DNA of 64,000 nucleotides from Desulfobacterales bacterium (GCA_034003325.1 JAVEYW010000005.1:156508-220507), one strand, 5' to 3'; shown: positions 6,872-57,541, counted from the stretch's first letter. A program made the numbers and translations. The notes: generated by a model from the sequence alone, not told the origin.

Positions 6872-6981
6872 ATTAGGCCCTTTACCAGAAACATGCACGC
6901 TTTTACGTGTATATTCGCCGAAGGTGAAAGATGGCTCTTAAGCATCCCAGCATCCCAGCATCCCAGCTTTGCCGGATTAGG
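6872..6981 (+). repeat. Family-1 structured intergenic element, copy A
   Basis: ATTAGG|CCCTTTACCAGAAACATGCACGCTTTTACGTGTATATTCGCCGAAGGTGAAAGATGGCTCTTAA(GCATCCCA)x3 GCTTTGCCGGATTAGG. Near-identical to six other loci. Confidence 0.85.
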
Positions 6982-7192
6982 GGGGATAAGCGCTCCCAAG
7001 AATTGCGACAAGTCATTCGGAAACCGCCAGCTGACGATGACACCTTACAAAGGTCTAATGGGATGCTAATCGTATGCTAACAATTATTTTTTAACGTAAC
7101 GGCAATGTCGGCCATTGGAAAATCAGTCTTCCGGTTTGCCGGCATGATGATCTTTGCAGCTATTTTCGAACGATAACACAAAGGGCGCTTTT

Positions 7193-8581
7193 ATGTCACC
7201 TTTTACTTTGATGCTCACGATTCTTCTGCTATCGATTTTTGGCTACTTCATCGGCAAAAAACGCGCCTTCGCCGTTGCCGAGGGTGTGTCAAAAACAAAA
7301 ACGCTTCATTCCCGGCCTACTTATTACGGCATGCTGACGGCCCTTTGGTGTGGACTTCCCGCCCTTGCGGTTCTGTGCGGCTGGATGGCGTTTGAATCCG
7401 GCATCATCACGCATCTGGTCATTGCCGATTTGCCTCCGGAGATACGAGAATTGCCTGAAAACAGGCGCAATCTCGTCATTAACGATATTCTCAATCTGGT
7501 TGACGGCAATATTCTTTCCAAACAGGTGGATGACACCCTGCGAAGCGCCGCGGACCATTATCGAAATCTCAAAGCAACCAGCAATGCCGCGCTGATCGTA
7601 TGCGCGGTGTGCGTCGGGATGCTGGGCATCGGAATGATCCGCAATCGAATAAAGCCCGCGATGAGAGCAAGAAACCATGTGGAAAAAGTTATCAAGCTAC
7701 TGCTGATCGCCTGTTCCTGCATCGCCATCTTAACGACCATCGGCATTATCATGTCCGTCCTCTATGAAGCGATTCGATTTTTTCATGTGGTGCCGCTTTC
7801 AGACTTTCTTTTCGGACTTCGCTGGAGTCCGCAGATGGCGATTCGGGTCGATCAGGTGGGGTCATCCGGCGCCTTCGGTGCGGTTCCGGTTCTGGTCGGC
7901 ACGCTGCTTATCTCGGGTATCGCCATGATCGTGGCGGTGCCCATCGGGTTGATGGCCGCCATCTATCTTTCAGAATACGCGGGTAAAAAGCTTCGAACCA
8001 TTGCGAAACCCCTTATGGAAATTCTGGCCGGCATTCCGACCGTCGTGTACGGCTTTTTTGCCGCACTGACGGTGGCGCCGTTTATTCGAGAAGTAGGCAC
8101 GTCCATGGGGCTGGAGGTGGCTTCGGAAAGTGCGTTGGCGGCAGGCGCCGTCATGGGCATCATGATCATTCCGTTTGTTTCATCCATTTCCGATGATGTG
8201 ATCAACGCGGTGCCGCAATCGTTAAGGGACGGGGCTTACGGGCTGGGCGCCACCCAATCCGAGACGATTAAACAGGTGGTGTTGCCGGCGGCGCTGCCAG
8301 GGATTGTCGGCGGGATTTTACTGGCTGTTTCCAGAGCCATCGGGGAAACCATGATTGTGGTGATGGCGGCGGGACTTGCGGCCAATATGACGGTAAACCC
8401 GTTGAAAACGGTCACCACCGTGACGGTCCAGATTGTCACGCTGTTGGTGGGGGACCAGGAATTTGACAGCCCCAAAACACTGGCGGCCTTTGCGCTTGGG
8501 CTGCTGCTGTTTGCTGTCACCTTGGTGCTCAATATTGTGGCCCTGCATGTGGTTAGAAAGTACCGGGAACAATACGAGTGA
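7193..8581 (+). CDS. pstC: Phosphate ABC transporter permease PstC (long form)
   Basis: Multi-TM permease with a PstC-type EAA region (LRDGAYGLGATQSETIKQVVLPAALPGI..SRAIGETM). ATG 7193 is preceded by AAAGGG. The track start at 7154 is a TTG without an RBS. Confidence 0.9.
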   Translation: MSPFTLMLTILLLSIFGYFIGKKRAFAVAEGVSKTKTLHSRPTYYGMLTALWCGLPALAVLCGWMAFESGIITHLVIADLPPEIRELPENRRNLVINDILNLVDGNILSKQVDDTLRSAADHYRNLKATSNAALIVCAVCVGMLGIGMIRNRIKPAMRARNHVEKVIKLLLIACSCIAILTTIGIIMSVLYEAIRFFHVVPLSDFLFGLRWSPQMAIRVDQVGSSGAFGAVPVLVGTLLISGIAMIVAVPIGLMAAIYLSEYAGKKLRTIAKPLMEILAGIPTVVYGFFAALTVAPFIREVGTSMGLEVASESALAAGAVMGIMIIPFVSSISDDVINAVPQSLRDGAYGLGATQSETIKQVVLPAALPGIVGGILLAVSRAIGETMIVVMAAGLAANMTVNPLKTVTTVTVQIVTLLVGDQEFDSPKTLAAFALGLLLFAVTLVLNIVALHVVRKYREQYE

Positions 8582-8590
8582 AATAGAGGA

Positions 8591-8643
8591 AGCTGGTAGC
8601 TGGTAGCTGATAGCTGATAGCTGAAAGCTGATAGCTGACAGCT
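8591..8643 (+). repeat. Heptanucleotide tandem array (AGCTGRN)x7.5 in the pstC-pstA spacer
   Basis: AGCTGGT AGCTGGT AGCTGAT AGCTGAT AGCTGAA AGCTGAT AGCTGAC AGCT, read directly from the sequence. Confidence 0.95.
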
Positions 8644-8673
8644 TTCGGTAAAACAGACGCGGGAATAAAAGCC

Positions 8674-9957
8674 ATGACTCAGGAAAATAAAAAGCCGGTC
8701 AGCACTATCGACATTGTCAACCGGAGGCTCCCCAAGCGGTATCGTGCCGAGCGCCGGTTTCGTCTCTACGGGATGATCGCCATTACCGCCAGTTTGGGCT
8801 TTTTGTCCTTACTGTTTATCAGTATTATCGGAAAAGGGTATACGGCTTTTCAACAGACGTTCATTCAATTGAATGTTTTCATGGACCCCTCGATGCTGGA
8901 CCAGACGGCGCTGGCAAATGCGGATTACAACCGGCTGGTGAAACGATCTTTGGAACAGCTTTTCCCCGAAGTTGAAACACGGCAGGATAAACGCAAGCTG
9001 TATCGGTTGGTGAGCTCAGGGGCGGCATTTCAGATTCGCTCGAGCATTTTGAAAGATACGGGCCTTATCGGAACCACCCGGACCCTGTGGGTGCCGGCGG
9101 ATGACAATGTGGACATGGTGGTAAAGGGGCATTTTCGATCCGCGAATGGCAAAGACCATGGCGGACCCTTGAGCGAAAAGGAATTGGAATGGATATCGCG
9201 GCTTCAATCCGAAGGGCGCCTTGAAAAACGATTTAACCGGACCTTTTTTACCGGAGGTGATTCCAGAGAACCCGAGCTGGCCGGTATCTGGGGGGCGGTG
9301 GTGGGGTCCTTCCTGACGCTGATCGTCACCCTCATCCTTTCCTTTCCCATCGGTGCGGCCGCAGCCGTATACCTGGAAGAATTTGCGCCCAAAAACCAGT
9401 GGACGGATCTGATCGAGGTCAATATCAACAATCTGGCCGCCGTGCCCTCCATCGTGTTCGGATTGCTGGGACTGGCCGTTTTTTTGAATTTTTTCGGTCT
9501 TCCCCGCTCGGCGCCCATTGTGGGGGGGCTGGTGTTGACGCTCATGACCTTACCCACGATCATTATTGTCGGTCGAGCGGCGCTTCAGGCGGTGCCGCCG
9601 TCTATTCGAGAGGCCGCCCTGGGTGTCGGGGCTTCGGGGATGCAGACGGTCATGCACCATGTGTTGCCTTTGGCGCTTCCCGGCATGTTGACCGGAACGA
9701 TTATCGGGATGGCGCGGGCGCTGGGGGAAACTGCTCCTTTGTTGATGATCGGCATGGTTGCGTTTATTGTGGATATTCCCGGCAGCATCACGGACCCCGC
9801 CACTGTGTTGCCCGTTCAAATTTTTTTATGGGCGGATAGCCCTGAGCGGGCTTTTATTGAAAAAACGTCTGCAGCGACCATGGTGTTGCTGGCCTTCTTG
9901 ATTGTTATGAATTCAGCGGCCGTCATTTTAAGGCGCCGCTTTGAGCGTCGCTGGTAG
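8674..9957 (+). CDS. pstA: Phosphate ABC transporter permease PstA
   Basis: TM permease with a large first periplasmic loop and the PstA-type region IREAALGVGASGMQTVMHHVLPLALPGM..ARALGETAPLL. Confidence 0.9.
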   Translation: MTQENKKPVSTIDIVNRRLPKRYRAERRFRLYGMIAITASLGFLSLLFISIIGKGYTAFQQTFIQLNVFMDPSMLDQTALANADYNRLVKRSLEQLFPEVETRQDKRKLYRLVSSGAAFQIRSSILKDTGLIGTTRTLWVPADDNVDMVVKGHFRSANGKDHGGPLSEKELEWISRLQSEGRLEKRFNRTFFTGGDSREPELAGIWGAVVGSFLTLIVTLILSFPIGAAAAVYLEEFAPKNQWTDLIEVNINNLAAVPSIVFGLLGLAVFLNFFGLPRSAPIVGGLVLTLMTLPTIIIVGRAALQAVPPSIREAALGVGASGMQTVMHHVLPLALPGMLTGTIIGMARALGETAPLLMIGMVAFIVDIPGSITDPATVLPVQIFLWADSPERAFIEKTSAATMVLLAFLIVMNSAAVILRRRFERRW

Positions 9958-10097
9958 AAATACAAGTTGAAGGCGAGCGCCGCTAATAAAACAATCATTC
10001 GGCGCTAACATTGTTTGAATATTGAAATACGAATATGAACCGACGTTAGCGAACTCGTCGCGGAATATAAACCAAACGCTTAAGGAGGAAAAAAGAA

Positions 10098-11153
10098 ATG
10101 TTGAAAAGGAAAATCGGTACGTTTACGGCGGCTCTCTTTATTGCCGGATCACTGGGTCTGGCGCATGCGGAATCGGCGCGGGACTATATCAGCATTGTCG
10201 GCTCATCAACGGTATACCCGTTTGCGACCGTCGTGGCCGAACAGTTCGGAAAAACAACCTCATTTAAAACGCCCAAAATCGAATCCACCGGAACGGGCGG
10301 CGGCTTTAAACTTTTTTGCGCCGGTATCGGTGTTGAGCACCCCGATATCACCAACGCTTCCCGGGCGATCAAAAAGTCCGAGTGTGAAAGCTGCGAAAAA
10401 AACGGCGTAAAAGAAATCGTTGAGGTTAAAATCGGGTATGACGGCATCGTGGTGGCCAATTCCAAGAAAGCACCCGTGATGAAGCTGACCCGAAAAGAAA
10501 TTTTTCTCGCATTGGCCAAGGATGTGCCCGACGCCAAAACAGAGGGAAAGCTTGTGGCCAACCCGCATAAAACTTGGAAAAGTGTCAACCCCTCTCTGCC
10601 GGATGTAGAAATTGAAGTTCTCGGACCGCCGCCGACCTCCGGTACTCGGGATGCGTTTGTGGAACTGGCCATGGAAGAAGGCGGGCAAGCGTTCGGGTGG
10701 ATTAAGGCATTGAAAAAGTCGGACGAGAAAAAGTTCAAATCCATTTGCCATACGATTCGTGAAGACGGTGCTTATGTTGAAGCCGGTGAAAACGACAACC
10801 TGATCGTGCAAAAACTCGACGCCAATCCCGATGCGTTCGGTATCTTCGGCTACAGTTTTCTGGAACAAAACCAGGATAAAATTCAGGGCTCCGTCATCGA
10901 AGGCGTTCAACCGAATTTCGATGCGATTGCCTCCGGCAAGTACGCCGTATCCAGGCCCCTGTTTTTCTATGTCAAAAAAGCCCATGTCGATGTCATCCCG
11001 GGTATTCGGGAATATCTCAAAGAGTTTACGAGTGAAAAAGCCTGGGGACCGGAAGGGTATTTGAGTGAAAAGGGTTTGATTCCGATGCCGGACGCGGAAC
11101 GGAAACAATACAGCGACAACGCGAAACACCTCGTCCCGGTCAGCATGAAATAA
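10098..11153 (+). CDS. pstS: Phosphate ABC transporter substrate-binding protein (PstS family)
   Basis: AAGGAGG RBS. Signal peptide (..GLAHA/ES). PBP-like motifs GSSTVYPF and GPPPTSGTRDAF. Confidence 0.9.
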   Translation: MLKRKIGTFTAALFIAGSLGLAHAESARDYISIVGSSTVYPFATVVAEQFGKTTSFKTPKIESTGTGGGFKLFCAGIGVEHPDITNASRAIKKSECESCEKNGVKEIVEVKIGYDGIVVANSKKAPVMKLTRKEIFLALAKDVPDAKTEGKLVANPHKTWKSVNPSLPDVEIEVLGPPPTSGTRDAFVELAMEEGGQAFGWIKALKKSDEKKFKSICHTIREDGAYVEAGENDNLIVQKLDANPDAFGIFGYSFLEQNQDKIQGSVIEGVQPNFDAIASGKYAVSRPLFFYVKKAHVDVIPGIREYLKEFTSEKAWGPEGYLSEKGLIPMPDAERKQYSDNAKHLVPVSMK

Positions 11154-11272
11154 GGGTGTCAAAGAACCACGGTGTATTTATTCTATCGATGGTTTAGGCA
11201 TTATGTTTGCTTTGCTTATCCGTCTATGAGGCCAGGATAAAAACGGCCGTAGCGATGAACAAAAACTGAATG

Positions 11273-11375
11273 CCCCAAAGGGGCTATGTAACATAGCCCA
11301 GGGTTGCGGCGCAGGCCGCTACCCTGGGTAAACCACGAACAAACCAATGAACCATCAACCCCAAAGGGGTTGTGT
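11273..11375. repeat. Cluster of GC-rich hairpins (REP-like) in the pstS-pstB spacer
   Basis: CCCCAAAGGGG; GGGCTATG-TAA-CATAGCCC; CCCAGGGT-TGCGGCGCAGGCCGCT-ACCCTGGG (with nested GCGGC/GCCGC); CAACCCC-AAA-GGGGTTG. Confidence 0.55.
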
Positions 11376-11474
11376 AAACTTGACGAAGGACCGGTGACAT
11401 TGTACCGTCAAGGGCACGGCAGTTCCGTCTTAAAATTTTTTTAATCAGCGGGTTAAATGGAATCGATTTTGGAA

Positions 11475-12350
11475 ATGAAAGACCGTACGACCATACCGGG
11501 GCGGGCAAGCGTCAAGCCGACAGCGGAAAGAGCGGAAGGCGGCATCGCCGTCGGCCGTGATGTACGGGAAACCGTGGGCGAGTGGCAGGTTGAAAATCCG
11601 CGCATGGCGTGTCGGAATGTGAATGTTTATTACGCGGAAAAACAAGCGATTAAAAATGTGTCTTTGGATATCGGACGCAATGAAGTGATCGCCATGATCG
11701 GGCCTTCAGGCTGCGGGAAGTCCACGTTTATTCGATGCTTGAACAGAATGAACGATACCATTGACGGGTGCCGCGTCACCGGACAGATCACCCTGGACGG
11801 AATGGATATCTACGGGGAAAAAGTCGATGTGGTGCCCCTGCGTGCGCAGGTGGGAATGGTGTTCCAGAAACCGAACCCGTTTCCAAAGTCGATTTTCGAT
11901 AATGTGGCCTATGGCCCGAGAATTCACGGCCTGGCGAAAAACAAGGCGGAGTTGAACGAACTGGTCGAGATTTCCCTGAAAAAAGCAGGGCTCTGGAATG
12001 AAGTCAAAGACCAACTAGATCACCCGGGAACCGGGTTGTCCGGCGGCCAGCAACAGCGGTTGTGCATTGCTAGAACCATTGCCGTGAGCCCGGAAGTCAT
12101 TCTGATGGACGAACCTTGTTCCGCGCTTGACCCGATCGCCACGGCAAAGATCGAAGATTTGATTGACGAGCTAAGAGAACAATTTACCATTGTCATCGTG
12201 ACGCACTCCATGCAACAAGCCTCCCGCGTTTCCCAGCGAACCGCCTATTTTCACTTGGGCGATCTGATCGAGGTGGGCACGACCATTCAAATATTCACCA
12301 AGCCACGGCATCAGCTTACCGAAGATTACATCACCGGGCGGTTCGGATGA
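11475..12350 (+). CDS. pstB: Phosphate ABC transporter ATP-binding protein PstB
   Basis: Walker [10 protein letters not shown], signature [13 protein letters not shown], Walker [13 protein letters not shown], PstB-type C-terminus EDYITGRFG. The start is uncertain; ATGs at 11457, 11475 and 11604 are all in frame. Confidence 0.9.
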
Positions 12351-12572
12351 TTTGGTCGTACTAAACGCTGGAAGCTGGGCGGCTGGGCTGCTTGGCGGCA
12401 AACGGCCTTCTCCGATGATACACACTTTATCCCCCCAACACACGCCGCGTATTTTATCCAAAAACGCCGAAATAAATTGTTTGAAACGAGTTAGCCTTGC
12501 TTTTGATGGCAGGCGGTAGACCATCGGTTGTTCCGAATCGAACGTTGTTTTTTTAAAGCTTTCGTGTGGGCG

Positions 12573-12779
12573 CATTACCGGTTTGTTAACACCTCTGGAT
12601 CAACACGGTATAGGGGCGAACCTGTGCGCGCGCCTATTGCCTTTGTAGGGGCAGACCTGCGTGTCTGCCCCCGTGAATCATAGTGCACGCTCCCCGCCCA
12701 ACCCAGGGCGGACACACAGGTCCGCCCCTACGTTGACCGCGACGCCATGGATGTTGTTTTCATAAACAAACCGGTAATG
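12573..12779 (+). mobile_element. Family-2 MITE-like element, full copy with 15-bp terminal inverted repeats
   Basis: The left end CATTACCGGTTTGTT (12573-12587) is the exact reverse complement of the right end AACAAACCGGTAATG (12765-12779). The interior carries three GC-rich hairpins. No coding capacity. Confidence 0.7.
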
Positions 12780-13029
12780 GTCCTTTTCGTATTCGCGTTT
12801 GGGCACCACTGCAAAAAGAAGATCAAAATAAACCGGCTCATAGAGGACTAATCCTTCTTTAATCTTGCCAAAACAAAACTCGTCCAAAAGTAAAACCGTC
12901 TCTCTGATTTCCCATGGCGGTCATAGCTCATATAACCGGCTCAATCGATGGGGGCAGGGCAAAAAAAACAGGAAGAAGGTCATTATCTGGTTGGAAGTAT
13001 TTATCTATTTAATTTAAAGGAGGAGATTC

Positions 13030-14517: not shown

Positions 14518-14533
14518 CGGTTTCGAATGGGAG

Positions 14534-14745
14534 TATTGCCGGTTGGTTAATGAAAACAACATCCATGGTAACTGTCGCGGGCAACGTACGGGGAAACGTA
14601 GGGGCGGACCTGTGTGTCCGCCCTGGTTTGGCGGGGATGCATCATGATTTACGGGGGCAGACACGCAGGTCTGCTCCCTACAGTGGCGACCAAAACGGCA
14701 ATAGGCGCACGCACAGGTTCGCTCCCTGCACCGTGTAATCCGTGA
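14534..14745 (-). repeat. Family-2 element, inverted copy with degenerate termini
   Basis: The reverse complement is collinear with 12573-12779: ATTGCCGGTTGGTTAATGAAAACAACATCCATGG..., the same three hairpins, and the end near 14745 diverged. Confidence 0.7.
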
Positions 14746-17202: not shown

Positions 17203-17324
17203 GCTGTATGGTCTCCTTTTCGGTCTGAATAGACAAGTCTATGCCCGGTAAACGGACTTCAATATATTGTGTTATCAAAAGCACCTTCGTATTTGGCCGG
17301 CATTAGGGGTGAAATAAAAAAGGA

Positions 17325-31390: not shown

Positions 31391-31426
31391 ATTCGACAAG
31401 TAAAATATTCAAGAAACCGAATGACT

Positions 31427-42185: not shown

Positions 42186-42294
42186 ATTAGACCTTTTATC
42201 AGAAACAAGCACGCTTTTGCGTGTATATTCGCCGAAGGTGAAAAATGGCTTTTGTGCATTCCAGCATTCTAGCATCCGGCTTTGCCGGATTAGG
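42186..42294 (+). repeat. Family-1 structured intergenic element, copy C
   Basis: ATTAGA|CCTTTTATCAGAAACAAGCACGCTTTTGCGTGTATATTCGCCGAAGGTGAAAAATGGCTTTTGT(GCATTCCA GCATTCTA GCATCCGG)CTTTGCCGGATTAGG. Confidence 0.85.
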
Positions 42295-42455
42295 TGAAGA
42301 CGGGAGGGAAGGGATGAAACAATATTTGAAACATCGGACGTGGTTGCATGCAATTTCATGGATGTGATATGTCGAGATTGAAAAGCGCTCCTGCCAAACG
42401 GCCGGCGATGAAAACCGATTCGCTTCAATCTATGAATTTTTCTTTCGAGTGATTT

Positions 42456-43073
42456 ATGCTGAATTATTTGCTTGTCGGGACGGTATTGGGGGTTTCGGCC
42501 GGTTTTTCACCCGGACCGCTTCTGGCGCTTGTGATTTCCGAAACCCTCAGGCATGATGTAGCGGCCGGCATCAAGGTGGCGATAGCACCCATCGTCACGG
42601 ATTTGCCGATTATCTTGGTTTCCGTGTTCATATTGGCGAAGCTTTCCGACCATCGCATGATTTTCGGCCTGATTTCCTTTTTCGGAGGCATGTTGCTTGT
42701 GTATATGGGGTATGAGTGTTTTTGGGTGAAATCCGTCGATTTGAGGTTGGATACCCGAAAGCCGAATTCGCTAAGGCGGGGAATCATGGTCAACGTGTTA
42801 AGTCCATACCCTTATCTTTTTTGGATCAGTGTCGGTGCGCCGACCACTATTAAGGCCCTGAATGAGAGTCCTGCTGCCGCAATGTCTTTTAATATCGGGT
42901 TTTATGCGCTCCTGGTTGGATCGAAGGTCGTACTGGCGATATTGGTCGGTAAATCAAGGTCGTTTCTGAAGGGGAAACTTTATTTGGGAATCATGCGGGG
43001 GTTGGGCCTCGTATTGATTGTGTTTGCCTTGTTTCTGATTCGGGATGGGATGAAAAGCTTCGGTGTTTTTTAA
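42456..43073 (+). CDS. LysE/RhtB-family amino-acid exporter
   Basis: 205 aa, 5-6 TM segments, N-terminal GxSPGP motif (GVSAGFSPGPLLALV). Confidence 0.8.
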   Translation: MLNYLLVGTVLGVSAGFSPGPLLALVISETLRHDVAAGIKVAIAPIVTDLPIILVSVFILAKLSDHRMIFGLISFFGGMLLVYMGYECFWVKSVDLRLDTRKPNSLRRGIMVNVLSPYPYLFWISVGAPTTIKALNESPAAAMSFNIGFYALLVGSKVVLAILVGKSRSFLKGKLYLGIMRGLGLVLIVFALFLIRDGMKSFGVF

Positions 43074-43133
43074 CACCGCGAACGGAGGCCATCCATAATC
43101 AGACCCCGTTTGATTATACCCATGGAGGATACA

Positions 43134-43622
43134 ATGGTGAACCCCATCAGACAACGGGCGATAGACGGATTACAACCCGGAGATACCTTTACGATCGAGC
43201 GTACCTTTACCCGGGCGGAAACAAATGCTTTCGGTGATATTACCCGGGATTATAATCCGGTTCATTATGATAGCCGATGGGCTGAGGGAAAGGGGTTTAA
43301 CGACCTTATCTGCCATGGGTTGCTGGTCGGATCCATGATTTGCGAATTCGGCGGTCAGGTGGGATGGCTTGCCACTGGCATGAATTTCAAATTTTTTCGC
43401 CCAGTCTACTTTGGCGATACGATTACCTGCAGTATTGTTATTACCAAGATAGCTGCCTCCGGTAGGGCTGAAGCGAAAGCACTTTTCAGCAACAACGCAG
43501 GGGACCAGGTAGGCCAAGTGCATATGACCGGCCGCTTGCCACTTGATTCGGATCGTGATCTGCTGAAACAAATGATATTCGAAGGGGACCCGACGAATAA
43601 GCTAAATGATGATGCAGCGTAA
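43134..43622 (+). CDS. MaoC-like (R)-specific enoyl-CoA hydratase / hot-dog fold dehydratase
   Basis: GDYNPVHYD..A....F...ICHGLL pattern. GGAGGA RBS before ATG 43134. Confidence 0.8.
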   Translation: MVNPIRQRAIDGLQPGDTFTIERTFTRAETNAFGDITRDYNPVHYDSRWAEGKGFNDLICHGLLVGSMICEFGGQVGWLATGMNFKFFRPVYFGDTITCSIVITKIAASGRAEAKALFSNNAGDQVGQVHMTGRLPLDSDRDLLKQMIFEGDPTNKLNDDAA

Positions 43623-43735
43623 CCATGCTGAGAAAAAAGCTGCCGGCATGGTTTCGAGGGCACATAAATCAACCCTGGATTATGTCATCGGCATCATGCT
43701 TGACAAGATATCCTTGCTTAGTTTAAGTGTATTTA

Positions 43736-43746
43736 AACCAACAGAC
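43736..43746 (+). promoter_or_regulatory. AACCARCAGAC motif, site 1 (downstream of TTGACA-17-TTAAGT)
   Basis: AACCAACAGAC, preceded by TTGACA (43700-43705), 17 nt, TTAAGT. About 260 nt upstream of the LolA-like gene. Confidence 0.35.
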
Positions 43747-43815
43747 CGGACAATTTTAAACATGCCCATTATGCAGTTAACCGGGCGGGGATATTCCTGA
43801 AATCAGCCGCTGCGC

Positions 43816-43912
43816 CCCAAACCGGCAAAGCCGGAACCCGGGCGGCTTGGCGGCCAATGACCTTCTCCAGTTATGCGCGCTTTTTGGTGCATGTTTCTGA
43901 TAATGGGTCTAT
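43816..43912 (-). repeat. Family-1 element, diverged inverted copy G
   Basis: CCAAACCGGCAAAGCCGGA...GGTGCATGTTTCTGATAATGGGTCT aligns with the reverse complement of the family-1 consensus. The 8-mer array is replaced by other sequence. Confidence 0.5.
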
Positions 43913-44007
43913 CGCAATCGGGTTTGACAGAGTGATTTCGTGGTGTGAGAAAGCACGGATAGTGTGCTTTGTGCCGCTTAACTTTAAACCAAAACACGAG
44001 GGGAAAA

Positions 44008-44832
44008 ATGAAAAAACAGTTACTTTTTGCTACGCTAATGTGCCTGATGCTATCTGTTGGTTCCGTGAAAGCTGAAACGCTCGATGCCGGGGCGATTATG
44101 GAGAAAATGTTAAGCGTGGTCGACGGCCGAAGTGGGGTGTCCCATAAGATCAACATTATTATAAAGGACAAGGATGTCGTCGTCGGCCAAATGATGGCCG
44201 GGGCTGCGGCGAAAAAGATTCAAGATGGCAACCGGCTGCTTATCGTTTTGCTGGAGCCAAAGGAGGTTAAGGGCGTCAGTTATCTGCTTCATAAATTCAA
44301 TGCTTCCGAGATTGAGCAATGGAGTTATTTCCCCTACATAGGAAGGGTGCGCCAAATTTCAGGCGCCTCGGTTTATGACAGCTTTCTGGGCACGGATTTT
44401 AATTTTTCGGATTTAGGCTATTCGCATCGAAACGGTGTGCATAAATTGCTGGGCGAAGAAACACTTGACGGGGCGTTGACCTATAAAATCGAGACGATAT
44501 CCCAGGCAAAACCGGTTTTCTATTCACGGATTGTTTCGTGGGTGGCCAAAGACTCCTTTTTACCCCTTCGCCAGGATTATTATGATGCGGCCGGACGGTT
44601 ATGGAAGCGGCAGCTTTATGAAAACATAACGAATATCAATAATTTTGCCGTTCCGCTCTTAATCCGGATGCTGGATTTGCAGCGCAACACCAGTACGGAG
44701 TTCAATATGAGCGAGATCAATACGGACAGCACACTTGTTAATGACGAAATGTTCACGCCTGAACAGCTTAAATATTCTTTGGTATGCCCGGTGTGGGAAA
44801 AAGTTTGCTATCCGGTTGAAACCGACAAATAG
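44008..44832 (+). CDS. LolA-like outer-membrane lipoprotein-sorting family protein
   Basis: Signal peptide. Size and pattern (..EQWSYFPYIGRVRQISG..SFLGTDFNFSDLG..) match recalled LolA_like/DUF4367-type proteins that accompany MMPL/RND exporters. Confidence 0.6.
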   Translation: MKKQLLFATLMCLMLSVGSVKAETLDAGAIMEKMLSVVDGRSGVSHKINIIIKDKDVVVGQMMAGAAAKKIQDGNRLLIVLLEPKEVKGVSYLLHKFNASEIEQWSYFPYIGRVRQISGASVYDSFLGTDFNFSDLGYSHRNGVHKLLGEETLDGALTYKIETISQAKPVFYSRIVSWVAKDSFLPLRQDYYDAAGRLWKRQLYENITNINNFAVPLLIRMLDLQRNTSTEFNMSEINTDSTLVNDEMFTPEQLKYSLVCPVWEKVCYPVETDK

Positions 44833-44900
44833 AGAGGTCCTTCTTGAAGGCAGGTTCTTTGCGAAGATACGTAAAGAACCTGCCGGCGGCGGGCAAAGAA

Positions 44901-45018
44901 ATTAGGCTCTTTCAACCCTTTACCAGAAACATGCACGCTTTTACGTGTATATTCGCTGAGGGTGAAAGATGGCTTTCATGCATCCCAGCATTCCAGCATC
45001 CGGCTTTGCCGGATTAGG
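44901..45018 (+). repeat. Family-1 structured intergenic element, copy D
   Basis: ATTAGG + 9-nt insert + consensus. Three 8-mer units. The terminal GGATTAGG contains the TAA stop (45014-45016, minus strand) of GntR-1. Confidence 0.85.
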
Positions 45019-45754
45019 ATAATACCATTTCGCGATAAAAGATGTTTGCCGTGCTGATCATATCCCAGCAGATGCGGTTATGACGCTTTTCATCCGTAAG
45101 AACAACCGTGTGGTAAAAAACCGGCGTGCCGTCGGGTAACCCCAGCAGCTCGGCCATATCGTCGGTACAGAGAAAGGGCAGCAGCGATTCTCTCATTTTG
45201 AGCGAATTGGACTCCAGCCATTCGGTAACACCAATAATGATGTCGCGAGGCGGGGTTGCTTCTTCGAGATTGGAAGCGGCCAGCCATTTTTCAGGAAGAT
45301 AGAAGGTCATCAGCGCTTTGAATTTTAGCTTGCCGGTAAAAATAATCCGGCAGTATAATTTATAAAGGGATTGTTGCGCGGCAGCTTCCGTTAAATTCAT
45401 CAGGCTTGCGAGCCGGGGATTTGGTTTTATCCAGTCTTTTGAAATAAATTCAAGATCCGCGGTTTTTACTTCCGGGATGGTTCTTTTGGAACTGATGAGC
45501 GTTGCAAGATCAAAAAACTGCAAGTCAAGGTTTTTGGGGACAACCGTACCCCATCCTTGTTTTCTGATCAGGAGTCCTTCCATTTCAAGAAGATCGAGGC
45601 TCTTTCGAACGCTCGTCTGGGACATGCCATGTTGCCGCGCCAATTCCACTAAGGTGTCAATTTTGGTTCCCTCTTGAATTTCACCCCTGATGATATCTTG
45701 CTTAAGCTTGTGATACAGACGAAAAAAGAGCGGAATGTTTTGACCTAAGGCCAC
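45014..45754 (-). CDS. GntR-family transcriptional regulator, paralog 1
   Basis: AAGGAG 8 nt upstream of GTG 45754. wHTH (SQTSVRKSLDLLEMEGLLIRKQGWGTVV) plus a ~170-aa effector domain. About 70% identical over the N-terminal 80 aa to the 56677-57417 product, which also starts with GTG. Confidence 0.8.
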   Translation of the reverse strand: MALGQNIPLFFRLYHKLKQDIIRGEIQEGTKIDTLVELARQHGMSQTSVRKSLDLLEMEGLLIRKQGWGTVVPKNLDLQFFDLATLISSKRTIPEVKTADLEFISKDWIKPNPRLASLMNLTEAAAQQSLYKLYCRIIFTGKLKFKALMTFYLPEKWLAASNLEEATPPRDIIIGVTEWLESNSLKMRESLLPFLCTDDMAELLGLPDGTPVFYHTVVLTDEKRHNRICWDMISTANIFYREMVLS

Positions 45755-45939
45755 TTGAATTGTCTCCTTGACAGCAGTGCGAGTCTGAATACCATTTGTC
45801 ACCCCATTAAACGCCCCTTTCGGCCAAAAAACAATCAACATAAAAGGGCTTTGTTTTGAGGGCCAAGATTTCATGGCAATAACGAAAAGACGTCAGCAGC
45901 ACGATTCCATCGCAACTGCTATTAATACATAATTTTTTT

Positions 45940-45998
45940 TTGACATATCTATAAATGGATGTCAATGTAAATTATGCTTAATTAATTAACCAACAGAC
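45940..45998 (+). promoter_or_regulatory. Promoter-operator module copy 1: TTGACA-N15-GTCAATGT-N19-AACCAACAGAC
   Basis: TTGACA 45940-45945, GTCAATGT 45961-45968, AACCAACAGAC 45988-45998. Spacing is identical to the module at 46325-46383. Confidence 0.4.
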
Positions 45999-46172
45999 CA
46001 AGATATTCTTTGCTGAAATAATTCGTTATGGGGTATCTATCCAAATGACACCACTAAAAGTTTGATTGCTTCCGTGCCATTGTTTTGATGGAATTAAATA
46101 AATAAAACAAATCGTTGCAATATAAAAAATAGGGGCGCTCATCTTGGCGACACGACCCAACGGAGTGCGCCT

Positions 46173-46289
46173 TTTAGACCCTTTACCGGAAACATGCACG
46201 CTTTTGCGTGTATATTCGCCGAAGGTGAAAGATGGCTTTTATGCATCCCAGCATCCCAGCATTCCAGCATCCGGCTTTGCCGGATTAGA
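46173..46289 (+). repeat. Family-1 structured intergenic element, copy E
   Basis: TTTAGA|CCCTTTACCGGAAACATGCACGCTTTTGCGTGTATATTCGCCGAAGGTGAAAGATGGCTTTTAT(GCATCCCA x2, GCATTCCA, GCATCCGG)CTTTGCCGGATTAGA. Confidence 0.85.
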
Positions 46290-46324
46290 TAACATGATAA
46301 AACATGTTTATAGGTAATTTTTTC

Positions 46325-46383
46325 TTGACAGGGCCCGGAATGTTTGTCAATGTGCAGTACGGTTTGCCCAAAAACCAACAGAC
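46325..46383 (+). promoter_or_regulatory. Promoter-operator module copy 2: TTGACA-N15-GTCAATGT-N19-AACCAACAGAC
   Basis: TTGACA 46325-46330, GTCAATGT 46346-46353, AACCAACAGAC 46373-46383. Confidence 0.4.
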
Positions 46384-47021
46384 ATCACCTCTTACCAGTT
46401 GTAGTAGGCACATCAAAGATCAGATTGAATTCAAAAGGAACGGGCGGTGTGTCTATGCCAAAAATATGCGAGCTCGATAGTTGAGCCTGAAGCGGTAAGG
46501 ATGACCTCCGAACCGGGTGTCGCGGATATAGTGGAATCCCGGGGCATTTATACGACAAAAACGACAAATGGCCTGAGACGGTGTACGGGCTTTTCCTGCA
46601 TCGGGCCATGAATACTCGGGAAAACGGCGATGCACCGGCCAGAGCACGAAAACGAACGACTTCATAGGGAACGTGACATTTTAAAACAAGCAGTGGCATG
46701 ATCTTGACGGCTACGCGTTGATTGCGGATACCCGCAATGTTTCGGTTTGTATTGGCGGCGTGCCGAGTATTTTAAGTTTCTTGCAGATGACGAACCGAAA
46801 AACGATTGAAGTTTTAGAAAGAGAGGTGATTGAAGAAGACACCGCGGGTCTCAGGAGCCGTTAAGGGCGATTATGGCTGCTTTTACGATCGAATTGCGAT
46901 TTACCCGAAGCTCGGGCGGGTAAAGTGGGTTTTCGTGTCAATATTCTTTTTTTGAATTCAATGACGCGGTCCACGCGGGCGCCCCCACATAGCAAGGGAT
47001 AAATAGAAAAAGGAAACGGAT

Positions 47022-48041
47022 ATGCTCGGGAAGAACTATCGAAAAAATCAATGGTGGGTTCCATTTCAAATAATGATTTGTCTGATGATGTTTTTACCCC
47101 CGGTCGGTAAAGCGCAGGAATCGTTGCCGCCGGATTTGGAGAACGCCAAACTATTTTTGAACCAAAATATAAATTTCAGAGAGAAATTTTATGACGCTGC
47201 AGCGATCAACGGAAGCGCGTGGTTGGTTGGTTATTACGGCACCATTTTGCACGTCACCGAGAATATGACGCAATTTGAAAGGCAGGACAGCGGCACCAAA
47301 GAGCCGCTGTTAAGCGTCAGCTTTGCGGATGGGAACAACGGGGTCATCGTAGGGACAAGGGGACTTATTCTTAAAACGGCCGACGGCGGCAAAACCTGGA
47401 CTAAAATTAAGACTGAATTTGATAAACACCTTTTTGCCGTGGCATTTGGCGATGTCAATAACGGCTGGGCCGTGGGTGAATTCGGCACGATTTTACATAC
47501 GGCCGATGGCGGCAATTCGTGGCAAGCGCAGTCGCTGGAAGGAATAGATGTCACCCTTTACGGTTGTTATTTTCTTGATGCCATGAAAGGCGTTGTGGTC
47601 GGAGAATTTGAAGTCATATTGTCCACCGTTGACGGTGGCGTCACCTGGCAGACGATACAGATGAACGACACGGATGGCGTCGCCCTGTGTGATGTGCTGT
47701 TCAAGACACCGGAAGAGGGAATTGCCGTGGGACAAAACGGTGTGTTGTTACAAACGCAGGATGGCGGCGTAAGCTGGGAGCGGACCAAGCTGCCGATTTC
47801 GGATAACCTGCTGGGTATCGGCGTGATGGATGATACGATATTTGTGGTCGGGCTTCGAGGGGTCATGCTGGAAAAGGCAGCGAGCGGCGAGTTTGAACTG
47901 AATAAGACGCTGGGCATATCGGGTTGGCTTCAATGTGTCGTGGGTTCCAAAAAAGGGCCTGCGCTCATCGCCGGGGATCACGGTCGTATCCTCTGGTCGG
48001 GGGGCGGAGAGGCGAAAAGAAAATGGATCATCCTGAACTAA
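47022..48041 (+). CDS. BNR/Ycf48-like beta-propeller protein (secreted)
   Basis: Signal peptide. Repeated G(T/F)ILxTxDGGxxW and GWAVG units, as in Ycf48/BNR-repeat propellers. Confidence 0.75.
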   Translation: MLGKNYRKNQWWVPFQIMICLMMFLPPVGKAQESLPPDLENAKLFLNQNINFREKFYDAAAINGSAWLVGYYGTILHVTENMTQFERQDSGTKEPLLSVSFADGNNGVIVGTRGLILKTADGGKTWTKIKTEFDKHLFAVAFGDVNNGWAVGEFGTILHTADGGNSWQAQSLEGIDVTLYGCYFLDAMKGVVVGEFEVILSTVDGGVTWQTIQMNDTDGVALCDVLFKTPEEGIAVGQNGVLLQTQDGGVSWERTKLPISDNLLGIGVMDDTIFVVGLRGVMLEKAASGEFELNKTLGISGWLQCVVGSKKGPALIAGDHGRILWSGGGEAKRKWIILN

Positions 48042-48138
48042 CCTGCCGATTGGCGAATGAGGCGGCATCATGTCGCCCGGAAACTAATTTTCTCATTCCG
48101 GCTAATTTGCAATGTAACGAAATGGAGTGCGGTTTTCA

Positions 48139-50490
48139 ATGAAAACGTTTTCTGAAATCATTATCAGACATCGCTTGTTTATTTTATTGGTACTGGCGGC
48201 TATTACAGGATTTTTCGCCTACCATCTTAAGGAGTTGAAAGTCAGGACCGAGTTTGACGATTTGCTGCCGGCCAACCATCCCTATGTTGCCTTGCATAAG
48301 TCCGTTCGGAGCATCTTCGGCGGCGCCAATCAGGTGACGGTTGTGGTGAAAGTCAAAGACGGGGATGTGTTCAACGTTGAAACCTTATCGAAAATTCAAC
48401 GGTTGACAAGAGCCGCTCAGCTACTGCCGTCCGTCAACAACTACCAGATCATCTCGCTTGCCAGTCGAAAGGTAAAGGATATTCGGGCGATTCCCGGCGG
48501 GGTTCAGGTGGGAAGCATTATGTTGTTTCCCGATGTGCCGCAGGATCAAGCCGAATTAGATGCCTTAAGGCGGAATGTCGCGAGCAATGACTTTATTTAC
48601 GGCTCCATGGTGTCCCTTGATTTCAAGGCGGCGTCCTTATCCATCGATTTTCTGGAAGTGGACCTGGATTACAACGAGATTTTTAATGCGATCAAACAAA
48701 TGTGCGATGCGGAGCGGGATGAGAAGCACAGCATTCATATGATCGGAACGCCCATTTTGTATGGGTGGGTGTATAAAAGTTTTCCGGATATCTTGCGAAT
48801 TTTTCTCTTGACCGGCGTGGTCACGGTTCTGTTGCTGTTCTTTTTTGCAAGAGGCAACTACCGGGGCGTGTTGTTGCCGGTGATAACCGCGGCGGTGTGC
48901 GGTATATGGGGGGCCGGACTGGCCGGTATGCTCGGTTACGCCATTGATCCGCTTCTTTTTGTCATTCCCTTTCTGATAAGCGCGGATGCCATTCGCCACG
49001 GCTTTCAGGTCACCATGCGCTTTATCGAAGAGCAGATGAAGACCGGAAAGCGAAAAGAGGCGGCGGTGGTAACGATACGGTCGCTTCTTATGCCCTGTTC
49101 GGTGTCACTCATCACGGATGTGGCCGGTGCGATTTTTTTGGTTTACAGTCCGATGCCCTTATTACAAAAGCTTTCGATCGTCGCTTCCTTTTGGATCGGC
49201 AGCATTTTGATCGGGGTCCTCGTGTTGGGGCCCATTTTGCTTTCCTATTTTCCCGTCAGCCAGAAAGCGACGGAAAAGTACAAGAAGAGTCTTGAATCGC
49301 CGGGGTTTATCAACGGTGTCTTCGACAAGATCATGCTGATTTTTGCAAAACTGCCCCATTACAAGAAAACCTCGGTCGCTGTTATTGTGGTACTTTTTGC
49401 GATTTTGGTGGTGACCACGAATTTGGGATTAAAGGTTCAAATCGGCGACATTCGGCCGGGGAGCCCGATTTTATGGCAGGATTCCGAATATAACAAAGAC
49501 TTTGCAGAGGTCAATGCGTCTTTCATGGCGTCCGAGCCATTGACCGTCGTTGTCCAAGGGAAAAAGAACGATGCGATTAAAAGCTCGGTCGTGGCGCATC
49601 TGATGTACGACTTTCAGCGGCATATGGAAAAAGACCCGTCCGTGGGGTATTCGGTTTCCGCTGTGGATGTGGCGCGCAAGATCAACATGGTCATGTACGG
49701 CGACAACCCGAAATATGAATTTATTCCGAGCACCTGGGATGAGATCGGGTATTTGTATTATACCTATATTTCACAGGGCGAGCCGGGCGATTTCCAGCGC
49801 TTCGGGGACATTCATTACAAGGATGCCAGTATTCAGGTGTTGTGCCTGGATCATAAGGGCGATACCATCAGCCGAATCCTGGACAGGGCGAAAACGTTTA
49901 TTGACGCGAATCCCATAGAGGAAGCGGAAATCAAGCTGGCAGCCGGCCTTCTGGGAATTCTGGGTGCGGCAAACCAAGAAATCTACATGGCGCAATTGAT
50001 TACCGTCATTCTGGCCTTTGTGTTTGTGTTTTTCTTCAGCTGGATCAGTTTTAGAAGCATTTTTGCCGCTTTTTTATTGCTGACCCCGCTCGTTTTTTCA
50101 AATTTTCTTACTTTTGCGTTTATGTATCTCAATAAAATCGGGTTGAATGTGAATACGCTTCCGGTAGCCTGCTTGGGCGTCGGGCTTGGCGTCGACTACG
50201 GGATTTATATTGTCAGCCGGATTAAGGAAGAATATGCGGTCCTCGGCGATGTGGAGGCTGCGGTTGAAAGTGCGTTGATGACCAGCGGCCGGTCCGTTTT
50301 GGCCACCGCGATTACAATCGTGATGAGTGTGGTGCTGTGGGCGTGGGCGCCGCTGCGTTTTTTGGCGGAAATGGGTATTTTACTCGCCTTCTGGATGGGT
50401 GTTGTGGCCATCGTCGCCTTGATCACCATACCGATTTTTGTTGTCTGGTTTAAGCCTAAATTTATAACAAAACAAGCGCTTGCTCACTGA
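48139..50490 (+). CDS. RND-superfamily (MMPL-like) transporter
   Basis: Two blocks of ~6 TM segments, each preceded by a large periplasmic loop, ~785 aa. The start is ambiguous (GTG 48127 or ATG 48139). Confidence 0.8.
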   Translation: MKTFSEIIIRHRLFILLVLAAITGFFAYHLKELKVRTEFDDLLPANHPYVALHKSVRSIFGGANQVTVVVKVKDGDVFNVETLSKIQRLTRAAQLLPSVNNYQIISLASRKVKDIRAIPGGVQVGSIMLFPDVPQDQAELDALRRNVASNDFIYGSMVSLDFKAASLSIDFLEVDLDYNEIFNAIKQMCDAERDEKHSIHMIGTPILYGWVYKSFPDILRIFLLTGVVTVLLLFFFARGNYRGVLLPVITAAVCGIWGAGLAGMLGYAIDPLLFVIPFLISADAIRHGFQVTMRFIEEQMKTGKRKEAAVVTIRSLLMPCSVSLITDVAGAIFLVYSPMPLLQKLSIVASFWIGSILIGVLVLGPILLSYFPVSQKATEKYKKSLESPGFINGVFDKIMLIFAKLPHYKKTSVAVIVVLFAILVVTTNLGLKVQIGDIRPGSPILWQDSEYNKDFAEVNASFMASEPLTVVVQGKKNDAIKSSVVAHLMYDFQRHMEKDPSVGYSVSAVDVARKINMVMYGDNPKYEFIPSTWDEIGYLYYTYISQGEPGDFQRFGDIHYKDASIQVLCLDHKGDTISRILDRAKTFIDANPIEEAEIKLAAGLLGILGAANQEIYMAQLITVILAFVFVFFFSWISFRSIFAAFLLLTPLVFSNFLTFAFMYLNKIGLNVNTLPVACLGVGLGVDYGIYIVSRIKEEYAVLGDVEAAVESALMTSGRSVLATAITIVMSVVLWAWAPLRFLAEMGILLAFWMGVVAIVALITIPIFVVWFKPKFITKQALAH

Positions 50491-54356: not shown

Positions 54357-54416
54357 CGGTTTAAAAACAAACGCTATGTTTGATGGCACCTGTTCGAAGG
54401 ACAACAGGGAAAAAAA

Positions 54417-56292: not shown

Positions 56293-56534
56293 TTTAAACA
56301 CTTTCTTCATCTTTTACATTTATTTTTCTTGTTGTCAAGTTTAAAAAACGGTTTAAAAAACGGTGAAATTGTATTTGGGGTGAATAAGATTTATTAGCCT
56401 TTGAAAATTATGTATCTTTCGTTTTTTTTATGCCCATCATCACTTTCATTTTGGCCGTTTTGACGGATACCGCCAAAAGGGCGGCGAAAGGTATCAAAAA
56501 GACACTTTCTACGAGAAAATGGCGGTAGTTTTCT

Positions 56535-56564
56535 TTGACATGGTTATACCCATTGCCTTATGAT
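56535..56564 (+). promoter_or_regulatory. Candidate sigma70 promoter of GntR paralog 2
   Basis: TTGACA (56535-56540), 18 nt, TATGAT (56559-56564), about 110 nt upstream of GTG 56677. Confidence 0.35.
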
Positions 56565-56676
56565 GTGTTGAATGGGCGCAGAACCTTAATCCTGAAAAGA
56601 TGAGATTCCGTTAAAGGTTGCTGCGCATATGAAATTTTCAGTGGATGAATTCTATTTATATAAGGAGTAGCCGCTT

Positions 56677-57417
56677 GTGGCGATAGGACAGAATATTCCT
56701 CTTTTCTTTCGATTATATCACAAACTCAAGCAGGATATCATTCGGGGTGAAATCCAAAAAGGATCTAAAATCGAAACCATAGAAGAGTTGTCGCAGCGGC
56801 ATTCCATGTCGCAGACCAGTGTTCGAAAAAGTTTAGAACTTCTTGAAAAAGAGGGACTTTTATTTCGAAAACAGGGATGGGGCTCACTGGTTCCGGAGAA
56901 TTTGGATTTGCACTTTTTTGACTTGGCGGATCTTATCAGTTCGCGAAAAGCGATTCAGGAAGTTAAATATGCCGATATCCAACTGATTAGTTCGGAATGG
57001 ATCAACCCGACCCGTCGGTTGATAACGCTTCTGAATTGTAAGGATACTGCTTTGAAGGATAGAATACTCAGATTATATTGCCGGCTTAGTTTTACAGATA
57101 AATTAAAGTTTAAGGCACTGATGGTATTCTATTTCACAGAAAAGTGGCTAAAGGAAGGCGGAGTAACCGCTTCTTCGCCGGCTCGTGAAATCATTATTCG
57201 CGCTTCGGAATGGCTGGAGTCGGGCACCATAAAAATGAAAGAATCGCTTGTCCCTTTTCTCTGCACGGATGAAATGGCGGAAAATCTGGGACTACCTGAC
57301 GGCACACCGGTGTTCTATCAAACTGTGGGGTTCTTGGATACTGTTCACAAGACATGTATGAGCTGGGATATGATCAGCACGGCAAACGTTTTTTACCGTG
57401 ACATGAATTTGAATTAA
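56677..57417 (+). CDS. GntR-family transcriptional regulator, paralog 2
   Basis: AAGGAG 9 nt upstream of the GTG start. Same length (246 aa) and collinear with paralog 1. Confidence 0.8.
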   Translation: MAIGQNIPLFFRLYHKLKQDIIRGEIQKGSKIETIEELSQRHSMSQTSVRKSLELLEKEGLLFRKQGWGSLVPENLDLHFFDLADLISSRKAIQEVKYADIQLISSEWINPTRRLITLLNCKDTALKDRILRLYCRLSFTDKLKFKALMVFYFTEKWLKEGGVTASSPAREIIIRASEWLESGTIKMKESLVPFLCTDEMAENLGLPDGTPVFYQTVGFLDTVHKTCMSWDMISTANVFYRDMNLN

Positions 57418-57422
57418 TGGCC

Positions 57423-57541
57423 CTTAGACCCTGTATCAGAAGCATTCACGCTTTTGCGTGTGTCTTGACCGAAGGTGGTAGGTGCCTTTTTTTGCATCCC
57501 GGCATTTCAGCTTCCCAGCAATCCGGCTTCGCCGGGTTAGG
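57423..57541 (+). repeat. Family-1 structured intergenic element, copy F (most diverged forward copy)
   Basis: CTTAGA|CCCTGTATCAGAAGCATTCACGCTTTTGCGTGTGTCTTGACCGAAGGTGGTAGGTGCC...GCATCCCG GCATTTCA GCTTCCCA GCAATCCGGCTTCGCCGGGTTAGG. Begins 5 nt after the GntR-2 stop. Confidence 0.75.

Follow-up and report, generated by a model that had tools for sequence, protein, structure and literature searches.

A short gene-less repeat with TTAG-type boundaries in an uncultured Desulfobacterales lineage is probably a PATE-like element of the IS200/IS605 type

A 64,000-nucleotide (nt) stretch of DNA from a Desulfobacterales bacterium (GCA_034003325.1, JAVEYW010000005.1:156508-220507), referred to here as the window and numbered from its first letter, contains eight copies of a short intergenic repeat, which usually measures about 105-112 nt (roughly 95 nt at the shortest and 145 nt at the longest). 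The repeats form a genuine family, with no fewer than 33 separate insertions on record. It is probably a miniature transposon without genes that belongs to the 'peel-and-paste' elements of IS200/IS605 type, resembles the palindrome-associated transposable elements (PATEs) and uses TTAGR as its target motif. Its length does not suffice for a transposase gene, and only short chance open reading frames (ORFs) cross it.

The limits of the element were determined by aligning 29-30 copies on their common core and calculating the information per column. On the left side, the flank is random until a motif consisting of T (24 of 30 copies), T (27), A (28), G (23) and R (G and A in 15 copies each), after which CCC follows in 30 of 30 copies; the left end can thus be written as TTAGR, followed across the boundary by CCCTTTAYCAGAAAY and a hairpin. 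The right end reads CCGGATTAGG, also written GCCGGATTAGG or CCGGNTTAGG, and the flank is random from the next base on. Its terminal columns are T in 29 of 29 copies, T in 27, A in 29, G in 29 and G in 26, and the terminal motif is TTAGG in 24 of 29 copies. TTAG-type boundaries had already been proposed in a sequence-only reading of the window, and with 29-30 copies they prove to be sharp in per-column information. The two motifs behave differently: in 14 of 29 copies, the left pentamer is not TTAGR but, nearly always, a single-base neighbour of it (TTAA, ATAG, TCAG, CTAG or TTAT), whereas only 2 of 29 copies have a deviating right pentamer. Variants of the left and right pentamers never co-vary among the 29 copies, and in none of them (0/29) does the left pentamer recur as the right flank. 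Since the motifs do not co-vary and the left pentamer is never found beyond the right tip, insertion was not accompanied by a target site duplication. The variable left and near-invariant right motif further indicate that the left one belongs to the flanking target and the right one to the element itself; this pattern of conservation suggests that the left motif is target DNA which is read with some tolerance. Terminal inverted repeats, which the sequence-only reading had likewise found to be missing, are indeed absent: comparison of the first 25 nt with the reverse complement of the last 25 nt yields a longest matching run of 4 nt and 12/25 ungapped matches, a weak end-to-end similarity with a p value of about 0.01.

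Two copies carry a duplicated element start. In copy D of the window, 9 nt are repeated behind the flank motif (window 44902-44924): TTAGG is followed by CTCTTTcaa and then by CCCTTTACC, the second start lying from 44916 on. Independently, the copy on contig L014 also has a duplicated start after a canonical TTAGG, with CCCTTTcgattaccatatg preceding CCCTTTACC. These duplicated starts may reflect an aberrant event at the left end or the remnant of an older copy.

The anatomy of the element is best described for copy E, the reference copy (46179-46289, + strand; 152.8 bits in the covariance model described below), in which all features lie on the + strand. Its flank motif TTAGA (46174-46178) is followed by the element start CCC (from 46179) and by AAAC (46190-46193), the proposed left guide as read from the sequence, the four nucleotides of which stand directly 5' of the foot of hairpin 1. 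Hairpin 1, the proposed left imperfect palindrome (46194-46213), has the sequence ATGCACGC-TTTT-GCGTGTAT with eight pairs, one of them G.T, and is separated by a single A (46214) from hairpin 2 (46215-46229; TTCGCC-GAA-GGTGAA, 15 nt), for which 95% of the cells are paired in the alignment. The linker AGATGGCTTTTAT (46230-46242), an array of three GCATYCCA octamers (46243-46266), hairpin 3 as the proposed right palindrome (46269-46285; ATCCGGC-TTT-GCCGGAT, 98% of cells paired) and the terminal motif, which is TTAGA in copy E (46285-46289), complete the element. Individual copies contain between 1 and 7 octamer units, most often 3. Hairpin 1 begins 15-16 nt from the left boundary, and on the other side 4-6 nt separate the end of hairpin 3 from the right boundary. 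All three stem-loops had been described as maintained in the sequence-only reading. Hairpins 1 and 3 are robust, as they form in single-strand DNA folds of both strands; hairpin 2 is missing from the minimum-energy fold. Maintenance could not be demonstrated by covariation: the proposed pairs are formed in 96.6% of the cells, but shuffled controls reach the same value and only one pair shows a double change, so that covariation is uninformative either way because the copies are too alike.

The left half of the element can be compared directly with IS608. In IS608, the target TTAC is situated outside the element, at a distance of 19 nt on the 5' side of the left hairpin's foot, and is recognized by the guide AAAG directly 5' of this foot via the pairs T-4:A+17, T-3:A+16 and C-1:G+19; A-2 does not pair, and the third base of the guide is turned into the protein. 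On the 3' side of the hairpin, A+42 and T+43 form base triples and a second small hairpin extends from +46 to +60 (PMC3201880, PMC5934647). Applied to a TTAG target, this pairing rule predicts the guide AAAC, and AAAC is what stands directly 5' of the ATGCACGC/GCGTGTAT hairpin, which constitutes a single match to the rule. In addition, AT follows hairpin 1 and precedes the 15-nt hairpin 2, and the distance from TTAG to the hairpin foot is 15-16 nt. Judged from these positions, the left half of the element closely matches the structure of an IS200/IS605 left end, C:G being exchanged for G:C in a compensatory manner. The two elements thus have in common a flanking left target tetranucleotide, a guide at the same position (TTAC/AAAG and TTAG/AAAC), the AT dinucleotide and the subsequent 15-nt hairpin. 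They differ in that IS608 possesses tnpA and tnpB, and in their spacing, which amounts to 19 nt on the left and 10 nt on the right in IS608 compared with 15-16 nt and 4-6 nt here. Furthermore, the cleavage motifs at the two ends of IS608 are different (TTAC and TCAA), whereas those of the element are identical (TTAG) and lack a matching right guide. A similar comparison holds for ISDra2, which inserts 3' of a pentanucleotide that flanks its left end in all copies (TTGAT instead of TTAGR), but which is autonomous, with tnpA and tnpB, and uses a different motif.

PATEs are recognized by the absence of inverted terminal repeats, by palindromes near their ends, by the lack of target duplications, by being non-coding and by a tip-to-palindrome distance that is longer at the 5' than at the 3' end (PMC3119063), and all of these features are present in the element. 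They carry a targeting sequence of 4-5 nt at their 5' side, and families with more than 90% identity have been termed 'homogeneous' (PMC3119063, PMC10055086). The element shares the near-terminal palindromes and the 5' targeting sequence with the PATEs of Haloquadratum and Natronomonas and with the PATE-like minimal ISGst elements of Geobacillus stearothermophilus. Unlike these, it resides in a bacterial host of the Desulfobacterales, no parent IS605-type element is known here, its tip equals its target, it is only about 105-112 nt long and it contains an internal variable octamer array. In Geobacillus, IS605-type elements target TTTAT or TTCAT, their tip differs from the target at two positions only, and gene-less 'PATE-like' derivatives of them exist (PMC10055086).

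According to the PATE-like reading, a Y1 HUH transposase (TnpA), the gene of which would lie at another place in the genome, would bind the hairpins near the two ends while the top strand is single-stranded. The left cut would occur 3' of the flanking TTAGR, which would be read by pairing with AAAC directly 5' of hairpin 1, and the right cut 3' of the TTAGG with which the element itself ends. Once excised, the single-strand circle would re-insert 3' of another TTAGR or of a one-base variant of it, thereby leaving no target duplication. As the tip copies the target, an insertion in the TTA of a convergent gene's stop codon would restore that stop, and every copy would present a new target at its own tip, from which head-to-tail pairs could arise. 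We infer the enzyme, the single-strand transposition itself and any current activity; the sequences themselves show the copies, their boundaries, the difference between left and right, the lack of terminal inverted repeats and target duplications, the guide match, and the junctions at stop codons and between tandem copies.

On three metagenome contigs (L022, L025 and L026), an old, diverged G-type copy is directly followed by a young A-type copy, and a single TTAGG or TTATG is common to both; the junction reads GCCGGTTTAG, directly followed by GCCCTTTAAC. As far as the sequence of these tandem junctions tells, the tip of one element is the target of the next. The idea that older tips act as insertion hot spots was dropped, since tandem pairs, at 3 in 29, are no more frequent than would be expected from the tips' share of intergenic TTAGR sites.

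A second type of junction involves stop codons. Where the downstream gene is convergent, the end of its ORF lies -4 to +9 nt from the element tip in 7 of 9 copies, copy D being the one that was checked base by base. The TTA of the right tip of copy D (45014-45016) is the complement of the TAA stop codon of a convergent gene for a GntR-family protein (45014-45874, - strand), in the direction of which the tip reads CCTAA. When 44907-45018 is removed in silico, the C-terminus of this GntR protein, REMVLS followed by the stop, remains unchanged and has the same length as that of its paralog, RDMNLN followed by the stop; this removal is the nearest approach to the reconstruction of an empty site that the sequences appear to offer. 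The two GntR paralogs (45014-45874, - strand, and 56677-57417, + strand) are about 74-89% identical at the nucleotide level near their 3' ends, and each of them carries a copy of the element at its 3' end (D and F, respectively) in opposite relative orientation.

TTAG is among the rarest tetranucleotides of the host genome (observed/expected 0.26, rank 4-5 of 256). In the whole window as well as in L029 and L030 and in L093 and L094, all tetranucleotides containing TAG are strongly depleted, with an observed/expected ratio of 0.04 for CTAG. It was considered that the genome avoids TTAG because of the element; this idea was abandoned, as TTAG is equally depleted in related Desulfobacterales without the element and all TAG words are rare. 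The general avoidance of TAG implies that targets are scarce and concentrated at gene ends.

The copies of the window have been identified in several ways. All six forward copies and the inverted copy reported by the sequence-only reading align over their whole length, a degenerate 40-nt core pattern, for which up to three mismatches were allowed, occurs five times in the window compared with 0.00 matches expected from 100 dinucleotide-preserving shuffles, and a covariance model, which was built from 31 copies and run on the window with filters off, assigns 60-153 bits to the seven known copies, all of which are thereby confirmed. The same model revealed an additional, strongly decayed forward copy, H (match at 29926-30053, 31 bits, E=7e-6). 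A supposed 3'-end fragment at 17291-17308 (GCCGGCATTAGG) is doubtful: it was missed by the covariance model and by the right-end pattern with up to three mismatches, and as loose matches of this size are common (4.45 expected at one mismatch), it is indistinguishable from chance.

Copy A (6878-6981, + strand; flank TTAGG at 6873-6877; 119.5 bits) occupies the divergent intergenic region between phoU (- strand) and pstC (+ strand), and its hairpin 3 is damaged, with CCAGC instead of CCGGC. Copy H (29933-30049, + strand; 31.1 bits) lies directly upstream of a PIN/PhoH-like gene, and its left end matches the left-end pattern with 3 mismatches; copy B (31433-31543, + strand; 148.6 bits) is found downstream of the PhoH-like gene, and its flank TCAGA (31428-31432) is a one-base variant of TTAGR. 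Copy C (42192-42294, + strand; flank TTAGA at 42187-42191; 129.3 bits), which has two octamer units, lies between msrAB (- strand) and lysE (+ strand). Copy G (43816-43907, - strand; 59.9 bits; flank ATAGA at 43908-43912 on the - strand) is inverted and represents a diverged subfamily with internal GCMGCCCA units and the tip TTTGGGG. The true left boundary of copy D (44907-45018, + strand; 127 bits), which follows the flank TTAGG (44902-44906), is probably 44907. Copy F (57429-57541, + strand; flank TTAGA at 57424-57428; 105.7 bits) belongs to a diverged subfamily and begins 11 nt past the stop codon of the second GntR paralog. As stated by the sequence-only reading, copies occur irrespective of the orientation of the neighbouring genes, as divergent, convergent and tandem contexts are all found. 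The genes of the window are all housekeeping genes, among them the pho/pst cluster, msrAB, a gene for a P-type ATPase, olsF, metK and the two GntR paralogs.

The host could be placed only broadly. Its PIN/PhoH-like protein is at most 72% identical to that of any species-representative genome, the best matches being metagenome-assembled genomes (MAGs) of Desulfobacterales, and the exact core of the element has no match in 185,579 species genomes, from which it follows that the species is not represented among them. Both results together indicate that the host is an uncultured Desulfobacterales lineage without a close reference. The core is present on 26 contigs of one JGI metagenome (Ga0265295). 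One of them, L021, corresponds to the copy A locus of the window (99.8% identity), and the other 25 have different flanks and therefore represent further insertions. The mean pairwise identity of the copies is 93.6% over the left 66 nt and, judged by their sequences, the A-type copies are a young family. A BLAST search of the element against plasmids and phages gave no match, and viral contigs scanned with the left-end and right-end patterns gave 0 matches. A left-end-like match in L065, located within a gene for an IS630-type transposase, was put down to chance.

In four of six frames, the element can be read through without a stop codon (for instance at window positions 6764-7069, 31421-31618 and 46139-46378). 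Owing to these open frames, gene callers have deposited look-alike 'hypothetical proteins' of 43-77 amino acids (P0001, P0003, P0006-P0011) in public databases, which are nothing but the translated repeat. Four of the metagenome insertions have been deposited in this way on JGI contigs of 117-328 kb. The matches of element translations in protein databases are the same insertions on long JGI contigs of 117-423 kb; other matches share the octamer repeat only. False ORFs created by the copies had been pointed out in the sequence-only reading.

Several observations weigh against an IS200/IS605-type element. Pfam and NCBIfam scans of the approximately 50 ORFs of the window revealed housekeeping genes only and no Y1 transposase, TnpB or other transposase, in agreement with the earlier statement that a cognate transposase is missing from the window. 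Furthermore, tblastn with IS200, IS608 and RAYT sequences found none in the window or in 1.49 Mb of further loci, none was seen in 26 metagenome contigs or in 80 related loci, and no full-length element with the same ends was seen in the loci examined. The right end is atypical: TTAGG starts at the foot of hairpin 3, and the distance from foot to cut is 4-6 nt, compared with 10 nt in IS608. The four nucleotides 5' of hairpin 3 are CAGC, AGCA or GCAT, depending on the placement of the foot, and not AAAC; candidates for a right guide give at best two of three predicted pairs, and the bases 5' of hairpin 3 are not conserved among the subfamilies A, F, G and H and the homolog in L029. The tip motif moreover equals the target motif, unlike in the elements that have been studied. 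At the left end, the guide variants AAGC, AAAT and AAAG found in decayed copies do not co-vary with the flank motif, and the guide match by itself amounts to a single coincidence of about 1 in 256 that was noticed after the fact. Finally, no empty site was found: contigs from two other samples, L027 and L028 (ENA ERZ27247324 and Logan SRR25572339), are 99.9-100% identical to window positions 42197-48714, and they start or end inside copies of the element. These contig ends indicate that the repeat breaks short-read assemblies of the host organism.

The distribution of the copies over the two strands has to be considered as well, since IS608 and ISDra2 target the lagging-strand template. GC skew is positive over the whole window, and for 7 of its 8 copies the top strand coincides with the G-rich one, which agrees with the strong strand bias that had been noted in the window. 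The bias does not extend to the further copies. When the other 25 contigs were oriented by the element and skew was measured outside of it, local GC skew serving as a proxy only, 15 of 25 copies were on the locally G-rich strand, with a pooled skew of 0.0045. In sub-windows of the same lengths taken from the window, the skew is positive in 92% of cases, so that approximately 23 of 25 would be expected if all copies were on the G-rich strand; the fraction was estimated at about 0.62, a value consistent with the absence of a bias. By this proxy, a replication-strand bias of the element would be weak or absent, unlike that of IS608. The non-autonomous IS200/IS605-type interpretation originally put forward is thus partly supported: the palindromes near the ends, the lack of inverted repeats and the TTAGR flank with the TTAGG tip hold, and the AAAC guide and the lack of target duplications fit it as well, but the strand bias as a hallmark and the association with REP/RAYT systems are not supported.

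The family could also be a distinct variant of single-strand transposon, in which the terminal motif is a copy of the target (TTAGG corresponding to TTAGR) and the right end is read without a guide in cis. In this case, the left guide AAAC may read both the donor flank and the circle junction, or a non-canonical HUH enzyme may do the reading. We regard this variant as rather unlikely. If it were true, the element would insert without a scar into stop codons and create its own next target, and the lineage-specific octamer arrays beside the right hairpin would be a by-product of right-end processing.

The atypical right end can also be taken as a sign of other machinery that joins DNA at a short core, such as a Y2 HUH rolling-circle enzyme (IS91/Helitron-like, with a hairpin near the 3' terminus), or a site-specific recombinase or IS110-type enzyme for which TTAGG would be the core of the crossover. 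With its perfect hairpin and no more than 4-6 nt behind it, this end is closer to a rolling-circle terminator than to the right end of IS608, an identical core at both junctions is the product of conservative site-specific recombination, and the failure to find a Y1 gene in the window or the fetched loci would also be explained. However, the left end matches IS608 in its distance, guide, AT dinucleotide and second 15-nt hairpin, and the left core is far more variable than the right one, as suits a cut made 3' of a target that is read loosely; a gene for such an enzyme was not seen among the ORFs of the window either. Mobility by such machinery is rather unlikely, but the atypical right end is a reason to keep it in mind.

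It is quite improbable that the repeat is a family of small structured RNAs or cis-regulatory RNAs whose hairpins act in the transcript, an alternative that had been mentioned in the sequence-only reading. The three potential stem-loops with G.U-compatible pairs on the + strand, folds that are more stable than shuffles (z-scores of -2.7 to -3.4) and a co-oriented downstream gene in 15 of 24 copies would suit an RNA. The complementary strand, however, folds about equally well (z-scores of -1.9 to -2.5), no covariation was seen, and as random flanks reach to the very boundaries, a conserved promoter or terminator is lacking. Copies are found in all gene-orientation contexts, some of them overlap stop codons, anything from 1 to 7 units make up the internal repeat, and copies stand head to tail with other copies. 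An Rfam search, which had been suggested as a check, gave 0 matches in the window at the gathering score; at E<=10, only CC0196 was obtained, with 11.8 bits compared with a gathering score of 35.

Little speaks for repetitive extragenic palindromes (REPs) of the REP/BIME (REPIN) type, handled by a RAYT (TnpA-REP) enzyme, which we consider highly improbable. REP/BIME repeats and the element are both intergenic hairpin repeats, the former being thought to be handled by a Y1 HUH enzyme, and in both a conserved tetranucleotide stands beside one hairpin. REPs are single imperfect palindromes of 20-40 nt with a 5' GTAG, typically arranged in inverted pairs. Neither this unit size, nor the GTAG-5' signature, nor the inverted pairs are found in the element, which is a composite of 105-112 nt with three different hairpins and a 3' TTAGG; no RAYT was found by tblastn, and a separate repeat family of the window has the real REP layout. 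The REP/RAYT option of the sequence-only reading hence fails on unit size, signature and arrangement. This second, unrelated family consists of GTAG and a GC-rich imperfect palindrome that occur twice in inverted orientation, with the core GTAGGGGCAGACCTGCGTGTCTGCCCC ... GGGCGGACACACAGGTCCGCCCCTAC, which corresponds to the classical REP/BIME (REPIN) layout known to go with RAYT enzymes. It is located at 5971-6102 (+ strand), 12568-12789 (+ strand) and 14524-14725 (- strand), and also in the left flank of the element in contig L011. REP-like repeats thereby lie on both sides of a phosphate regulon cluster (3421-12350), which comprises genes for a phoR-like kinase and a response regulator, phoU, pstC, pstA, a pstS-like gene and pstB.

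A classical MITE (a miniature transposable element with inverted repeats) derived from a DDE insertion sequence would have a suitable size, intergenic spread and some end-to-end similarity (12/25 ungapped, see above), but it is just as implausible, given that there are no real terminal inverted repeats (longest run 4 nt) and that target site duplications were found in 0 of 29 copies. A MITE of Porphyromonas gingivalis that contains a minisatellite is likewise small and non-autonomous and has an internal variable-number tandem repeat; it differs from the element in having terminal inverted repeats and being of the DDE type (PMC4596501). An integron attC site was also considered. The 5' end of an attC site bears the inverse core RYYYAAC, whose pairing partner is the core GTTRRRY at the 3' end. 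The tip ATTAGG of the element resembles such a core, but the left CCCTTTA is not the complement CCTAAT and the ends do not form an imperfect palindrome, and attC was therefore rejected.

The PATE-like element has a homolog in another genome. In 1.3 Mb from 80 related genomes, the covariance model gave one match, which belongs to the closest relative (L029:6683-6859, - strand, 25 bits; Desulfobacterales MAG CAXXXZ010000002.1). Its ends are the same as those of the element, with TTAG followed by CCCCTTTACCCGAAATATACAC on the left and GTCGGCTTTGCCGGATCAGG on the right, and its internal array consists of about nine CGACTGWC units in place of GCATYCCA. This homolog and the G-type subfamily with GCMGCCCA units indicate that the architecture is older than the burst of A-type copies. 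Beside the right hairpin stands a lineage-specific tandem repeat, every unit of which reproduces the sequence located just 5' of this hairpin; from its sequence, the internal array looks like the result of slippage. Octamer arrays of the A type (CAGCATYC) also stand alone, without element ends, in Desulfonatronum parangueonense and in other metagenomes. About 19 octamer units are found at L109:10010-10140 (D. parangueonense GCA_054656975.1), and further arrays at L110:1920-2110 and in L111 and L112. These stand-alone arrays lie in islands rich in toxin-antitoxin and ATPase genes and are annotated as hypothetical proteins with the repeat MLECWDAG.

Taken together, the repeat would add a compact, high-copy PATE family to the Desulfobacterales, for which none turned up in the literature searched. 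No new mechanism is opened by this interpretation, and the atypical right end is the sole part of the element that could do so. For annotators, the element serves as a warning, as its look-alike short ORFs are already in the databases as 'hypothetical proteins', and its copies would explain why assemblies of the host organism break at element sites. If the interpretation is correct, TTAG and AAAC would show the guide-target rule of IS608 at work in nature, with a compensatory swap, and the target-mimicking tip would allow insertions to land in stop codons while the encoded protein remains unchanged.

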